NCBI GenBank assembly: GCA_027071355.1
Contig: JALSUJ010000410.1
Span: 984 to 24,983 of the forward strand
Reading direction: 5' to 3'
DNA: 24,000 nucleotides
From: Gammaproteobacteria bacterium
GTDB lineage: Bacteria; Pseudomonadota; Gammaproteobacteria; GRL18
Positions 6,001 to 12,000 of this stretch are shown one piece after another. Position 1 is the first letter of the stretch. The number at the start of each line of letters is the position of its first letter. Position numbers: made by a program.

Positions 6001-9000
6001 TCGACCAAAATGAATTTCTGTCTCATCTGAGACAAAAAACGTAGTAACTGGCTACGCAAAACAATCAGCATTAACCGTGCAGGCACCTGTCTGCATATAT
6101 TCAAACCCCCAGGGGATCATTCCCTGCGGGGATTGATCTCCATTTTTTTTGGAGCTCAAAAAAATGAATAACACACTAAATGAAATCCGGGCCATTGACC
6201 TGGATATACATATATGGTCCGCCCGCCGGAAATTGCGGGTCGAGGACCTGAAAAATCTGTCGCAAGACAGTATTCCGCCAGCCACTCTGGCCTCACTGGG
6301 CAGCAAAATCATCTGTGATCCGGATGAAATTGCTGTCTTTACCCGACTGAAGAAGCAGGCGACGCGAGCTTGTGAAGCAGTTGGCACCCGCTTTTTGCAC
6401 GGTTATGCCGTGCCCAAAGGTGAAATTGTTTCACTGACAGAAACATTAAATAAAATAAAAAAGGAATTTGAAACCAAAAAGGCATCATTTATTGCCCGCT
6501 ATGACCAGATCATAAGCAGCTGGATGGCGGAAAATGAGCAATGGCGAAACATTATCGCCAAAGCGATTACGCCGGCGGATGTTGTCGCGGCCCGAACCAG
6601 TTTTGGTTTTCAGGTGTTCGCGGTCAATGAGGCCACGGCGGATGATGATTCATTGGATGATTCCTTAAACACGGGATTAAACAATCATGTTGATTCCCTG
6701 GCCGATACCTTGCTGACAGAAATCAGCAAAGAAGCCTTAAAGCTGTGGGAAAACTCGTTCCACGGCCGCGACAGTATTACTCGTCGTGTTTTAAGCCCGT
6801 TAAATATGCTTCGCGCAAAATTAAACGGGTTTGTTTTTATCGATCCGTGTGTGGCACCAATTGTTGGTCATATCGACAATACGTTGGCAGGACTACCCAA
6901 AAAGGGTCGCATAGAAGGTAAAGACTTGTTGGCGCTCGAAGGTTTGTGTTTGTTGATTTCTAATAAAGACAAACTGAAAGCACATGGCAATGCCATTATT
7001 GCCAACAATAATCGGCCGGTGTCGGATCAAGCGGAAACTGAAGAACCGGTTTTTCAGGTTGATTTATCTGAAACGGTTGTTGACGAAGAAGCCGAATCCG
7101 TACCGATATTGATTGATACGGCTGTTGATCAGGATGAAATCAGGCCTGTTTTACAACCGGAACCAGAATCGGCCCAACCAAAATACCCCAGTTGGGGATT
7201 TTAAATCAATGGTGTTACCCATGACACCATTGATGGTGTTAATGGGTAATGCCGGGAGTAATAATTATGGCAACACCATTAAAAAAAACAAGCGTCCTCG
7301 AAAGAAGCCTGCCCATTGTGGCACAGGCACTTGGCCGCAAACAGGGCGTTCGTGTAATCATTGGTCAATCAGACAATGCCTGCACGACGGGTAAAGATAT
7401 TTACCTGCCTGCCTTGCCGCTTAACAAAATGAAAGCGGAAATATACGCATACGGGTATATCGATCACGAATCCGGGCACATCCGGTTTACTGATTTTTCA
7501 GTTAAGTTTAAATGCCGGTCTAGTCTAGAAAATACTTTTCGTCAGATATTTGAGGACATTCGAATAGAACAAGCTATTGGTAAAAAATACCCTGGATGTA
7601 AAATGAATATTGGTCGCTTGGTGAAAGCCATGGTTGATGATGGTAAATTTGAAAAAGTTGATACTTCAAATCATCCCGCTATGATCGTAGTGGCATTGAC
7701 ATTATATCGATGTCGACATGACATCTTAAACCAGCACGCACTGGCTGATCTTGCACGGCAGGCAACTGAGGTGGCTAATCAGGTTATACCTGCTGGCGCC
7801 ATGGTCCGGCTTACCGGATTAATGAGTAAGGCTCGCACCCTGAGCGATTCGGATGCAGCGTTATCCTTAGCCAGAGATGTGATTACCTGTCTTGAAGAAG
7901 AACAGGACAAGGAATCTCAGAAATCAAGCGATGATTCCAGTACTGATACCGGGAACGATTCTGGTTCGGATTCCGCTGATTCGAACGATGACGCGGGTAC
8001 TGATACCGGGAACGATTCTGGTTCGGATTCCGCTGATTCGAACGATGACGCGGGTACTGATACCGGGAACGATTCTGGTTCGGATTCCGCTGATTCGAAC
8101 GATGACGCGGGTACTAATACCGGGAACGATTCTGGTTCGGATTCCGCTGACTCGAACGATGACGCGGGTACTGATACCGGGAACGATTCTGGTTCAGGTA
8201 CTGGTGCCGCTGAGATTCTTCAGGAAATCGTTGATGCAAAAGATGCTGATTTGATGAATACGGATATTGCCCAGTTAGCAGCAGAACAACTGGATGAAAT
8301 GGCTGATCAAAGTGATTATCCAGTCGTTGTCGGAACAGACAGCGGATACGCGCCACCATCAGGATTAGGTGATAACTTGTTCAATGAAGCTGCTCGGCAT
8401 AGTAGTTTTCTACGTGCCAGGCTGAACGGATTACTGCAGAGTCAAAAGATGGTCAGATCATCATTAACAGATAGCGGGAAAGAGTTATCGCAAAACCATC
8501 TGTATCGTGTGGCCGTCAATGATATTCGTGTTTTCAAAAAGAAAAAACGAAAAGCAGGCATCAATACAGCTGTGAGCATTTTGCTGGATCGGTCTGGATC
8601 AATGAATGGCGATAAATCGCATGTATCAAAAACGGCATTAATTGCCGTTGCGCATGCGCTATCAATGATACAGGGTGTGTCCGTTTCATGCTCCGCTTTT
8701 CCAGGACAAACCGGACATGACGTAGAGCGAATTACTGACTTTGGTCAGTCGCCCCGTTTGTTTGCGGAAAGGTTTGATATTCATCCGCAGGGGGGCACAC
8801 CGCTTGCACAAGCTATGTGGTGGACGGCAACGCAATTATCGCGCTGCAGTGAACCGCGTAAGTTGTTGCTGGTAATCACTGACGGTGAACCTAACGATTA
8901 TCATCGGTCGCTTGCATCGATTACGCAATTAATTGAGTTGTGTGATCAATCCCAAATCGAGTGCATAGCGCTTGGAATTGGTGAGCTAAAAATTGCTGAG

Positions 9001-12000
9001 GCGTTCCCGGTGCATAGCACCATCAAGGATGTTAATCAGCTGGCGGATGCATTGTTTGATCTGATCAAACAAAAAATGCTTTTTGCCGCTTAATCAATGA
9101 CCCCTGGCAACAGGGGTCTCATTTAATACTATTTTTTAAGTGATATTAAAAGAGATACGTATTCTGCCTTTGGGCAAAGTAGTGGTAACTGTCCACTTAA
9201 AACAAGCAGCATCTTTCTAGCCTTATGGCCAACCATCCTACGGGATATCAACGACTCTTTGAGTCAGTCAATTTTCATCTGATTCGTTTCAGGTGAAGTC
9301 TATTGAGCAAAATCATCAACACATTTTTCTCATGTAACCGCCGTAAGGCATTTTTTTATGCAGCAATGCTGCCTTTTTATTGGAGACAATAATGAATAAA
9401 GCAAGTATCAAAAACTACCCTGCCGCCGCAACCTTTGGAATTAACGCGCCGGCAGAGGCAACCATACCGGGTCTTGAAGATGTTAATGACCCGTTCGTAC
9501 CGGAACTGGACCCGGATTATAGTTTTCTACCCGGACCCTTGTCAGACTTACTGGCCTGGCGTCAATGCGGTCTGCCCGACGGATTGCATATCTATGGACA
9601 ACAAGGATGTGGTAAATCAAGTATGGTCGTGCAAACCTGTGCACGACTGAATATCCCCCTGGAACGCCCCCCGGTAAACCGGGACATGACATGGGGGGAT
9701 TTAATAGGCGCAATGAACATCATCGATGGTGATACGTTGTTTGTCGATGGGCCATTAACGCGTGCGATGAGGATGGGGCGACCTATTCTCATTGATGAGG
9801 CGGATCGCATTGATCCGGCAATAAACTCTGGAATGCATGCCATTCTGGAAGGTGCTCCTCTGGTATTGCCGTATGGCGGTGTCGTGGTGGAACCACAACC
9901 TGGCTTCTGTGTTATTACCACCGGTAATAGTGAAGGTTCTGGGGATCAGAGTGGATTGCATCCTGGTGTTATGCAACAGGATACGGCCTTCATGGATAGA
10001 TTCTGGACAACCCTGATGAAATTCATGGAACCGGATGAGGAGGTTAATCTTCTAAAAAAGAAATGTCCGGATATTCAAAATGATGACATCATCAACAAGA
10101 TGGTCGAATACGCAAATGAGGTTCGGCTTCTGGCAAACGGGGTTGATGATGATAGTAGTCATGCCGTCGATGTTGGACGGATTAACATCACCATGAGCAC
10201 CCGGACCCTGGTACGCTGGGGAAAAATGATGTGCGTATTCAGATATAAAGCACAGCAGGGGATAAACCCGCTACTTTACTCACTGGAAAGGGCGTTCACT
10301 TTCCGGGCCTACCCGGAGGTTCGTATGGCTTTGCATGAGTTAGCCAATAATATCTTTGGTGATCTCACAAAAGTTGGGGGTGACTAATGATCTACGAGGT
10401 ATTTCGAGAAGGAGATACCGATATAGCGATTGGCAAGGAAGGCCAATCGTTGTATATCCGCACTGCAAAAAAAGGAAAACCGATGAAAAAAGCAACGGTT
10501 TTCCCAAAAAAAGCGGTTGGGGATTTAACGGTGTTTAAAAAACAAAAACGCCAGGAGCATCTGGACAAAGGGTTTGTTTATCTGGGGACGGTGGAAACGT
10601 CCGAGGAAAAACCTTATCCGGTATTTAAGGGTGAGATTGAGTTTTTCTGGAAGATGAATGCGGTGAGCCTTTCTGAAATTAACGCGATTCTCAATGCGTT
10701 GCACGGAAAGTTAAAAACCGTGTTGACCGTTCGAGAAGAACCGGAAGGTCTGGTGATTGAGTCAGATCATGTTTACAGTATTGGGACGCACACTGACGCG
10801 GATATTTATCTAGCGCCAGACAGTGATACCGGTGGAGTGCTCATTGCGTTGTTACCGGTTATGTTAATCCTGTATCTGGCGAAAAACGACAGTCGTTTTT
10901 CGCTGTGTGGGAGCAACAACGATTTACTGGAACCGGATCTGGAGGCAATAAAAGATCGGTTACCGTTTGCACTGTCTGATGAGGACTATGTGCTAGCGGA
11001 GAAACTGGGTATTTATACCAAGCCTATCGATTGGTCAACCAGTGTTGTCAGGGATAGAACCCAAAACAACTGGCTTTTTTAATATTAACCATAACCGTTG
11101 CCCCTGATTTCAGGGGGCAACATTTCTAAATCATAAATGCGACAAAAAAAACGAACAACAGACAACAACATCAACGAATAACAGAGGAGACCATTATGCA
11201 CTTCTTATTGGGTGGTTAGTGCGAAAAACTGCCGGTATTCATCACTGTACATGTTCGATATTGGCAACATGAAGAAATGGATCGGGAAATAGCAGGCCCG
11301 TATGATCCAAAAAAAACAAGCCCCCTCCGATGGAGGGGGTGATTTTGGTGAATTTTTCGCAAAAAAATTGAAGGTGACTAAAAACATGCACTTCCAGTGC
11401 AATGATGCTTTTATTGATTAGGTATAATCGAAGGTATTCTTTATCACTTACAACCAGTTTTTTGTCTCTTCGGAGGCACCTTGTCCTGTCAAGGTTAAAA
11501 AAGGAGGGTTTTGACGGTTTCCCCTTAATTGAACAAAATGCCCTCGCAATCCCGTTTCTTTAGAGGCGGGTCAAGCGTGCTTTCTTTTTTTGCCTGATAG
11601 CTTTTTCGAGTGTTCCACCTGACGATCTGTCGGTGGGGTGCGCTGATTTTCGATATACGTTTTCACAACATCCAGGCTGGCACCACCAACAGAGACCACA
11701 CAATAACTGGGCGACCAGAAATGATTTCCCCAAAGCTTTTTCTTTATTTGTGGCCAGTAGTCTTTGCGCAAGAAGTAGGCTGATTTCCCTTTGAGCTTTC
11801 CAACCAGATTAGACACGGCAATTTTTGGATGCACTGCCACCATCAAATGCACATGATCATCTTCACCGTTGTACTCCAACAGTTCACAGTCCATCTGCTT
11901 GCAAGTTTCGGTAAAGATTTTATTTAAACGCTCAAGCAGTTTTCTGTTTAATACATCACGCCGATATTTGGTGACAAAGACAAGATGCACATGGTTTTTA

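Follow-up and report, generated by a model that had tools for sequence, protein, structure and literature searches.

Introduction

The IncC plasmid pVCR94 carries the operon named hde (host defence evasion) by Roy et al. in 2020 (PMC7498323), in which the genes vcrx089-090 are described as encoding a protein with AAA_5 and CbbQ_C domains and then a protein without a Pfam domain. The vcrx089-090 deletion lowered transfer 25-fold into V. cholerae O395, which has a type I restriction-modification (RM) system, transfer into an hsdR deletion recipient was normal, and complementation worked when the genes were supplied in the recipient but not when the donor carried them (PMC7498323). In pKAZ3, the vcrx089-90 deletion raised EcoBI/EcoKI restriction 424- to 906-fold (Dimitriu et al. 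2024, PMC11602122) and EcoRV and EcoVIII restriction approximately 10-fold (PMC11602122). AntiDefenseFinder lists vcrx089_090 as a two-gene anti-defence system. Here we describe a very divergent relative of this known system, not a categorically new one, in a 24,000-nt stretch of DNA (hereafter the window; contig JALSUJ010000410.1, positions 984-24,983 of the forward strand) from Gammaproteobacteria bacterium GCA_027071355.1 (GRL18). The module (window 6164-11082) contains four genes, encoding a DUF3150 protein, a CobT-like protein with a VWA domain, a CobS-like AAA+ ATPase and a 231-aa protein. Judging by the IncC and SXT homologues, it probably serves host-defence evasion or establishment (rough probability 0.6).

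The aerobic CobS-CobT pair (with CobN; PDB 9ujv, 9uka series) belongs to the same AAA+ subfamily as the ATPase of the module and has the same three-part CobT architecture. Its CobN/cobalamin context is absent here, whereas DUF3150 and the Vcrx090-like partner are extra components of the module. NorQ-NorD and CbbQ-CbbO likewise combine an AAA_5 ring with a separate VWA protein, which has a metal ion-dependent adhesion site (MIDAS) and targets the client, and they are our template for the arrangement proposed below. These pairs remodel nitric oxide reductase and Rubisco, whereas the setting here would be DNA entry and anti-defence. ArdC of R388 (PMC7213743), an anti-restriction protein that binds single-stranded DNA, acts in the recipient against hsdRMS during conjugation; it has a metalloprotease domain, as proposed here for the VWA protein, and is a precedent in this respect. 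ArdC is a single protein without an AAA+ or VWA domain and is set beside the module by description, the peptidase here being putative.

IncC, IncA, IncT and SXT/R391 elements are major multidrug-resistance carriers. AAA+-based anti-restriction raises transfer into restricting hosts 25- to 900-fold. Comparison with the module described here, from a lineage that is far diverged and poorly sampled, gives handles on the mechanism: the obligate DUF3150-VWA pair, the HExxH motif separating these proteins from real CobT, the shared putative docking tail and the conserved leader.

Comparison with the IncC and SXT genes

In the IncC plasmid pNDM-1_Dok01 the order is traN ... AAA+, a 302-aa protein, ssb, bet, exo, DUF3150 and VWA. 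By identical lengths and order, genes of the IncC locus L001 are pVCR94 exo (vcrx093), vcrx094 and vcrx095. The ATPase and the 302-aa protein were assigned to vcrx089-090 because of the gene matching, the position just upstream of ssb and the description in PMC7498323. By homology, the window module appears to be a divergent counterpart of vcrx089-090 plus vcrx094-095, suggesting an anti-restriction function here. The ATPase is 36% identical to the IncC ATPase over 96% of its length, the VWA protein 32% over its full length (263 bits) and the DUF3150 protein 30% (alignment A2). As in Vcrx089-090 of pVCR94 and its SXT/R391 homologues, an AAA_5 + CbbQ_C ATPase is followed by a small partner without a Pfam domain, the pair is linked to nuclease, DUF3150, VWA and primase genes and, here in the sister loci, to a single-stranded DNA-binding protein (SSB) gene, and a related 5' leader lies upstream. 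The order differs from IncC, since here DUF3150-VWA precede AAA+-partner, and the recombination set here is a PD-(D/E)XK nuclease, whereas that of IncC is RecT and YqaJ.

The partner is shorter than Vcrx090, far diverged and nearly an orphan. An exhaustive HMMER scan of 1.8 billion representatives detected only four relatives of the 231-aa open reading frame (ORF), all close to it in length (245-251 aa), and a short local match within a protein of 1640 aa. The two relatives that were fetched, from the syntenic loci L003 and L006, both lie directly after the AAA+ gene. A word-index homologue search with the 231-aa ORF returned the query itself only, and its pairwise BLAST comparison with the partner proteins of IncC and of the Geoalkalibacter plasmid pGSUB1 was not significant. 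The profile-profile alignment (hhalign) of the 231-aa family (A1) with the Vcrx090-like family (A4) gave 88.8% probability and E 2.5e-6 over 175 columns, and we therefore treat the 231-aa ORF as a very divergent Vcrx090. Its N-terminal domain is rich in beta structure, its C-terminal part, which the Vcrx090-family alignment covers, is poorly modelled, and its tail is ...NNWLF-COOH.

A preliminary description of the locus, made from the sequence, had noted a start-stop coupling of the 231-aa ORF to the ATPase gene and a faint WGR resemblance at its N-terminus. The coupling is present (Table 1); the resemblance is doubtful. The AlphaFold2 (AF2) model is confident for residues 1-80 only (predicted local distance difference test, pLDDT, 84-94; four strands, helix, strand), and the best Foldseek match of this region is 2ra8 (E 7e-3), which we take to be a WGR protein. 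The ORF had no match in Pfam, WGR (PF05406) included, and hhalign against a Pfam-positive WGR protein gave 1.3% probability. In pGSUB1 the gene at the same position encodes a Pfam-positive WGR protein (E 8e-5). Two tandem paralogues upstream of the module, 51% identical to each other and without a Pfam match, both align with this pGSUB1 protein (hhalign 86% probability, E 5e-6, 55 columns). The clearer WGR resemblance thus appears to be that of the two upstream paralogues, not of the 231-aa ORF, and WGR-like domains, as predicted from these alignments, accompany the module.

Like the hde operon, the vcrx094-095 genes are AcaCD-induced (expression 5 to 2868), and vcrx094 shares a transcript with hde genes. 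The preliminary description considered the DUF3150, CobS-like and CobT-like triad to be without an assigned function; this still applies to DUF3150 and VWA, but the AAA+ gene and its downstream partner have been characterised since 2020. Its suggestion of an establishment, anti-defence or defence machine rather than a chelatase agrees, in its anti-defence part, with the anti-restriction effect of the IncC vcrx089-090 homologues, which act in the recipient. SXT s063, the deletion of which lowers transfer 100-fold, was first suspected to be the ATPase. This link was dropped because the pAQU1 annotation lists s063 as a separate hypothetical protein (aligned over ~205 residues), apart from CobS and the VWA protein.

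Relationship to the cobaltochelatase

Both conserved ATPase motifs named in the preliminary description, Walker A and Walker B, were located, and the VWA protein has the described DRSGSM and TDGEP motifs in a MIDAS completed by GGTP (Table 1). The ATPase also has the TTGN, MDRF and STRT motifs, aligned to CobS, which are read as putative sensor 1, Arg finger and sensor 2. Pfam assigns PF06213 CobT (E 2e-14), CobT_C (E 4e-11) and VWA (E 1e-6) to the VWA protein, consisting of an N-terminal CobT-type domain, an acidic linker and a C-terminal VWA domain. The hmmscan check proposed earlier thus returned the AAA_5/CbbQ_C, CobT/CobT_C/VWA and DUF3150 models.

These matches raise the question of a true cobaltochelatase CobS/CobT pair, which would insert cobalt into hydrogenobyrinic acid a,c-diamide in concert with a CobN from another locus. 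Among solved structures in the PDB, CobS and CobT are the closest relatives by sequence (CobS E 2e-24 for the ATPase, which also matched NorQ, CbbQ and midasin; CobT 39.6 bits for the VWA protein) and the best, though weak, NCBIfam matches. We find a chelatase barely credible. The NCBI equivalog models gave 80.4 bits against a cutoff of 558.55 (CobS, TIGR01650) and 58.4 bits against 759.05 (CobT, TIGR01651), and the ATPase scores 195 bits with IncC Vcrx089 but only 102 bits (30% identity) with S. meliloti CobS. The window has no CobN and no cobalamin gene, its largest ORF being 616 aa, and no large ORF recurs in 80 related loci. The neighbours in the relatives are nucleases, SSB, primase and anti-restriction genes, the homologues show an anti-restriction phenotype, and true CobT is without the HExxH motif at the aligned position. 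The earlier view of a CobS/CobT-like pair without CobN that is not a chelatase is therefore upheld by the failing equivalog models and the missing CobN. The usual labels given to these genes by annotation tools are 'cobalamin biosynthesis' and 'hypothetical'; a 'cobS/cobT' annotation on a plasmid or in a metagenome should not be taken as a sign of vitamin B12 metabolism.

Co-occurrence of the module genes

For the census, one genome per species was scanned for DUF3150, and 80 loci, approximately 50 of them near-identical SXT/R391 elements, were annotated with hidden Markov models from the loci in hand. Among the 64 loci with enough flank, the ATPase gene was within 10 kb of DUF3150 in 63 and the VWA gene in all 64. 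VWA was always directly downstream of DUF3150, as in nine individually inspected loci, and the rule also holds in the IncC-like, Azospirillum, Methylococcaceae, Competibacter and Salinisphaera loci. The recurrence of the triad anticipated by the preliminary description was thus found. By tblastn, ATPase relatives were detected in 4056 plasmid records and DUF3150 in 1160, of which 975 are conjugative. The mobile-element setting described earlier is supported by these records for the relatives; the window itself has no type IV secretion system (T4SS) gene. The triad is likewise found in integrative and conjugative elements (ICEs), as had been stated, and in plasmids, but its occurrence in phages is weak. 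When 50,697 phage records were searched with DUF3150 by tblastn, the single match was filed under Salmonella Typhimurium and is apparently a plasmid record; none came from a cultured phage. The viral-contig scan gave one matching 4.3-kb fragment.

The joint occurrence of DUF3150, VWA and AAA+ in 63 of the 64 loci suggests that the two genes characterised so far belong to a machine of four; we put the chance that all four proteins form one machine at about even. The solved ATPase relatives among the matches (CobS-CobT, NorQ-NorD, midasin) work with a VWA partner or domain, and CbbQ works with the VWA partner CbbO. Two features of a MoxR-class remodeller, intact ATPase motifs and a partner VWA with a complete MIDAS, are present here. 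The simplest reading, by analogy with these pairs, would make the CobT-like protein partner to the Vcrx089-like ring, with the Vcrx090-like protein and DUF3150 as adaptors or clients.

MoxR/VWA pairs have reportedly been proposed as conflict-system cores (Kaur, Burroughs, Iyer and Aravind 2020), and the window carries a PstI-like RM system, both of which could speak for a MoxR-AAA+/VWA system of defence or inter-element conflict, attacking phages or competing plasmids. This is very unlikely in view of the positions and regulation of the relatives. PADLOC gave only a weak IetA-like match, for the ATPase (E 0.028), and left the three remaining proteins without a match. In the related ICEs and plasmids the module occupies conserved backbone positions next to traN, not cargo or defence islands, the IncC module is co-regulated with transfer genes, and the tested homologues protect the element, not the host.

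In a chromosomal ICE (L008, GCA_031963415.1; 13168-16163), ArdA, two Antirestrict (KlcA/ArdB-type) genes and a Toprim primase gene directly follow DUF3150-VWA, placing the module there in an anti-restriction cluster.

The DUF3150 and VWA proteins

The earlier DUF3150 call is confirmed by PF11348, which scored 289.3 bits against a gathering cutoff of 24.9 and covered profile positions 1-256 of 257. The true start is likely ATG 6164, behind GGAG, not TTG 6149, in agreement with the database copy P0007 of 346 aa (the TTG ORF has 351 aa). The AF2 model from a 64-sequence alignment (pLDDT 82.5; tail below 50) has a small sheet against long helices, forming an alpha/beta domain of approximately residues 1-285 counted from ATG 6164. 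From about residue 290 follows an acidic, disordered C-terminal tail (16 acidic, 3 basic residues), ending ...YPSWGF-COOH. The fold had no PDB match at E <= 0.001, the best being Csm2- or Cas2-like fragments with E > 1; it matches uncharacterised proteins of uncultured tailed phages with E down to 3e-14. Literature searches on DUF3150 and on the CobS-CobT cryo-EM structures gave nothing useful.

In the VWA protein the MIDAS motif DxSxS is kept in 76 of 78 relatives. Its N-terminal domain contains the motif G-[YF]-[LI]-x-H-E-x-x-H, followed ~25 residues on by E-D-x-R-I-E. HExxH is found in 74 of the 78 unique relatives; H73, E74, H77, E102 and D103 are invariant in nine divergent members and E107 in all five sequences of alignment A8. 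The mobile-element proteins thus keep HExxH...EDxRIE, whereas S. meliloti CobT has DSMAL...EQARVE at the aligned position, without HExxH. A PHROG family annotated 'peptidase' matches residues 70-118 (E 1e-7). At the level of the motif, an active peptidase is a tentative and rather unlikely hypothesis for this domain; if it is real, the AAA+/VWA pair would resemble an ATP-dependent metalloprotease.

The acidic linker differs in every relative of the VWA protein. Inside the VWA gene (window 7940-8195), Tandem Repeats Finder detected 4.5 copies, 98% identical, of a 57-nt tandem repeat encoding 19-aa acidic repeats (DSADSNDDAGTDTGNDSGS) in this linker; the near identity of the copies suggests a recent expansion. 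The C-terminus of the protein (9079-9093) is ...MLFAA; the last residue is A in 20 of 73 relatives, in most of these as ...AA, while SXT-type VWA proteins end ...LLIQ. The ...AA end is reminiscent, as a pattern, of the ssrA-type LAA degron read by ClpX.

Aromatic C-terminal tails

The aromatic end of the DUF3150 tail recurs in its homologues. Among 106 of them, the C-terminal residue is F in 86 and W in 9, and the C-terminus is aromatic in 79 of 80 census relatives. Among the unique census sequences, such tails were found in 98% of DUF3150, 100% of Vcrx090-like and 94% of YqaJ exonuclease proteins, in 0% of AAA+, VWA, primase and TraN proteins, and in 3% of all other ORFs. The post-ATPase protein ends in NWLF here and in WMF, WQF, NWF, HFF, MFF, YFF or FYF elsewhere. 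From lineage to lineage, the type of tail changes in concert on DUF3150, the post-ATPase protein and the exonuclease: SXT tails are FYF, YYF and FYF, Methylococcaceae-type loci have xWF, and the window lineage has W-x-F, also on the 213-221-aa WGR-like family, whose sister-element homologues end ...SWSF and ...LWQF. A shared and co-evolving docking site would give rise to such co-variation. Candidate receptors are the VWA MIDAS site, the ATPase and a host hub; docking on the VWA or AAA+ subunits is possible, in our estimate, but somewhat unlikely.

The SSB tip is an acidic run ending ...IPF-COOH, and similar Phe-ended docking tails occur in T7 gp2.5, gp4 and F TraD. The tails described here likewise combine an acidic disordered segment, an aromatic end and a free carboxylate, and here they are on several proteins of one DNA-processing set. 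Their residues differ from the SSB IPF (WxF, xWF, FYF or FF); the SSBs of the elements themselves end ...IPF or ...PDF.

This likeness is one of the points for a mainly accessory role in single-stranded DNA metabolism or recombination, in which the module would load, unload or recycle SSB, exonuclease, annealing protein or primase on incoming or broken DNA, and anti-restriction would be an indirect outcome of improved repair of breaks or of quicker second-strand synthesis. In nearly all loci there is tight linkage between the module and ssb-recT-yqaJ (or the PD-(D/E)XK nuclease) and the Toprim primase, the exonuclease shares its tail with DUF3150 and the post-ATPase protein, and the accompanying WGR-like domains are proposed nucleic-acid binders. 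The vcrx093 (exo) deletion also raises EcoBI restriction 426-fold (PMC11602122), and the effect of vcrx089-090 depends in part on ssb/bet/exo according to the authors (PMC7498323). However, the ssb-exo deletion had no effect on transfer into RM+ V. cholerae, into which the vcrx089-090 deletion strain transferred at a lower level, as given above (PMC7498323), so that the functions are separable in at least one host. We consider this accessory role improbable, though far from negligible.

Acidic Phe-ended tails also dock in conjugation, as in the F TraD tail binding TraM, and early action in the recipient would be useful. The tails could thus be export signals by which DUF3150, the post-ATPase protein and the exonuclease are injected via the T4SS with the DNA. 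We hold this highly improbable: complementation of vcrx089-090 from the recipient only argues against delivery from the donor, and the tail type varies by lineage.

The structured 5' leader

The preliminary description placed a structured leader on both sub-operons, and copies were found before each (Table 1). The leader module consists of hairpin 1, an A-run and hairpin 2 (loop TA[AG]CTGG), followed by CAAACAAnCAGCAT. There are six copies in the window, all on the + strand. Hairpin 2 covaries: over 26 copies, 31 cells have changes on both sides, the figure in shuffles being 10.4 and none of 500 shuffles reaching this level, and the wobble pairs are G-U in the coding sense. Sister and IncC-like loci (L001 7821-7875; L003, L006, L010, L084-L091) also have the leader, again on the coding strand, and where its place was compared with those of the genes it is just upstream of nuclease, ATPase, DUF3150 or primase genes. 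In pVCR94 an AcaCD box and then a mapped transcription start lie just upstream of the leader position, and by colinearity the IncC leader starts at the mRNA 5' end, just after the published vcrx087 transcription start. No Rfam family matches the leaders.

We read the leader as a putative RNA element of the 5' untranslated region, possibly a stabiliser or an attenuator. Each leader in the window closes with a hairpin and T-run directly before the ribosome-binding site, as ahead of the DUF3150 and the AAA+ genes, where the hairpin is short and made of GC pairs; this is the layout of a transcription attenuator or a translation-initiation control site. A Frpo-type single-stranded DNA promoter is unlikely, as the G-U wobbles are coding-sense and the IncC module is downstream of the transcription start; the AcaCD box was rejected as the identity of the motif, the IncC leader lying after both the box and the transcription start. 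The leader may correspond to the intergenic 'rptI' repeats, described by Roy et al. only as recombination substrates (PMC7498323).

The whole leader of ~330 nt is repeated three times (5824-6151, 14545-14970, 16019-16244), one pair being 98% identical over 127 nt. It contains a long inverted repeat, TTTTGGTCGA...TCGACCAAAA (5946-6017, 14668-14739, 16019-16090), with a z-score of about -6 when folded as DNA or RNA; this repeat could be an operator.

We found no earlier report of the aromatic tail set, the VWA HExxH...EDxRIE motif or the shared 5' leader.

Proposed mechanism and its assessment

In the mechanism that we propose, the AAA+ ring would power the CobT-like VWA/MIDAS partner, as CobS, NorQ and CbbQ do, the four genes encoding one machine. 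The VWA protein would be the targeting and possibly the catalytic subunit, its MIDAS gripping an acidic ligand and its N-terminal HExxH...E potentially being a zinc peptidase. DUF3150 and the 231-aa protein would dock on a common site through their acidic, aromatic-ended tails. The machine would strip, remodel or degrade a DNA-bound host factor on incoming DNA, for example a translocating or stalled type I restriction complex, and the shared leader would couple its expression to the nuclease and primase operons of the element.

Taken jointly, these proposals are doubtful: a four-part ATP-driven machine with an active HExxH peptidase, a lineage-specific tail code and an undescribed leader RNA, which removes or destroys DNA-bound type I restriction complexes. 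In this joint account the exonuclease and the WGR-like paralogues would plug, together with DUF3150 and the Vcrx090-like protein, into the machine or a shared host hub, and the leader RNA would be made up of a pair of covarying hairpins, a CA-rich box and, ahead of the ribosome-binding site, an attenuator-like hairpin. If the joint account is true, CobT would be a peptidase-dead relative of the VWA-protein family.

Several points weigh against host-defence evasion by such a machine. The experiments behind anti-restriction were all done on homologues, and similarity to the tested proteins is low, with the ATPase identity given above and a profile-versus-profile match only for the 231-aa ORF. 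No function or phenotype has been reported for vcrx094 (DUF3150) or vcrx095 (VWA). Deletions of SXT s067, s068 and s070 in the corresponding interval changed transfer by at most 10-fold, and the IncC transposon-insertion sequencing (TnSeq) screen did not flag vcrx094-095 (PMC7498323). We judge this screen to be blind to an anti-restriction role of vcrx094-095 because the Cas+ and Cas- recipients are taken to share the RM system. The DUF3150 fold yields no functional lead. The HExxH segment gave only CobT matches in Pfam and no peptidase family, even at E up to 10, and the receptor of the tails could be a host protein and not the VWA or AAA+ subunits. The window contains no T4SS gene, origin of transfer (oriT) or relaxase, so that the setting of incoming conjugative DNA is taken from the relatives.

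Organization of the window and neighbouring genes

Features of the module and of the related genes are collected in Table 1. A GGAG-type ribosome-binding site precedes each likely start (ATG 6164, ATG 7267 and probably ATG 9392). Hairpins follow the VWA gene and the fourth ORF, dividing the block into two apparent sub-operons, DUF3150-VWA and AAA+-231aa.

Table 1. Positions of the module genes, motifs, leaders and related features in the window
Feature	Position	Strand	Evidence and remarks
DUF3150 protein, putative IncC vcrx094 counterpart	6164-7204	+	PF11348 E 3e-86; longest ORF 6149-7204
CobT-like/VWA protein, putative IncC vcrx095 counterpart	7249-9093, likely start ATG 7267	+	Pfam; longest ORF 7249-9093
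HESGH motif of the VWA protein	7465-7479	+	N-terminal
EDIRIE motif of the VWA protein	7552-7569	+	N-terminal
MIDAS DRSGS	8587-8601	+	
MIDAS GGTP (threonine)	8791-8802	+	
MIDAS TDGEP	8878-8892	+	
CobS/NorQ/CbbQ-type (AAA_5-class) ATPase, putative IncC Vcrx089 counterpart	9392-10387	+	AAA_5 E 6e-20, CbbQ_C E 1e-7; longest ORF 9380-10387
Walker A GQQGCGKS	9596-9619	+	
Walker B ILIDEAD	9785-9805	+	
231-aa protein, putative divergent Vcrx090 counterpart	10387-11082	+	Start overlaps the AAA+ stop by one base (TAATG); longest ORF 10387-11082
Leader module before DUF3150-VWA	6019-6082	+	Repeat family D2; nhmmer E 3.5e-15; loop TAACTGG, then CAAAACAATCAGCAT
Leader module before the AAA+/231-aa sub-operon	9161-9225	+	nhmmer E 3e-13; alignment A5
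Leader module before the nuclease operon	2006-2069	+	
Leader module before the primase operon	16092-16149	+	
Leader module, further copies	5809-5870 and 14528-14592	+	
Hairpin and T-run, attenuator- or terminator-like	6128-6150	+	Terminator-like site just before GGAG and ATG of DUF3150
Hairpin and T-run	9360-9381	+	Terminator-like site just before GGAG and ATG of the AAA+ gene
GC-rich hairpin, possible terminator between the sub-operons	9099-9118	+	Sequence read; after the VWA stop codon
Hairpin, likely operon end	11097-11121	+	Sequence read; after the 231-aa ORF
PD-(D/E)XK nuclease	2155-3027	+	PF12705 E 4e-20; leader module upstream
221-aa paralogue, WGR-like N-terminus	3577-4242	+	Tail ...PPFCF; alignment A6, hhalign
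217-aa paralogue	4359-5012	+	Tail ...KPFCF; alignment, hhalign

The other window genes encode a DHH/DHHA1 phosphoesterase, the PD-(D/E)XK nuclease, the two paralogous 217-221-aa proteins, an IS200/IS605 tnpA-tnpB pair, a second TnpB, a Toprim/DUF7146 primase and the PstI-like RM system. The window had no ssb, recT or yqaJ match, the PD-(D/E)XK nuclease and the primase being present instead. By synteny in L003 and L006, where SSB and PD-(D/E)XK genes lie upstream of the module, the nuclease holds the exonuclease position of the ssb-recombinase-exonuclease set of the relatives.

In the sister element L006 (GCA_015485075.1), a fusion of WGR and an ATP-dependent DNA ligase adjoins the module (7031-8101 region), and its other neighbours include an Endonuclease_1 gene, an Mrr-like nuclease and ribonucleotide reductase. 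The lineage of the window and L006 packs an unusually complete DNA-metabolism gene set. Plasmids and E. coli genomes gave no match to the module in Megablast searches, and the element is known only from metagenome-type contigs.

The DHH/DHHA1 phosphoesterase gene (531-1418; weak Pfam matches) heads the block; its product could be a nuclease of the RecJ kind or a phosphodiesterase acting on nucleotide signals with an anti-defence role. The IS200/IS605 unit (11571-13994), consisting of tnpA on the - strand, tnpB on the + strand and a 164-aa ORF between them, sits in the stretch between the 231-aa ORF and the primase gene, which are ~500 bp apart in L003 and L006, and a 68-nt repeat (11458-11525, 14737-14804) is found on both sides of it. 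The second tnpB is solo (18140-19342, - strand). The segment at 21492-23868 (- strand) encodes a BsuBI/PstI-type restriction endonuclease and a protein with an Eco57I-type methylase domain; its GC content is lower (35-39% against ~45%), and these RM genes are probably separately acquired cargo.

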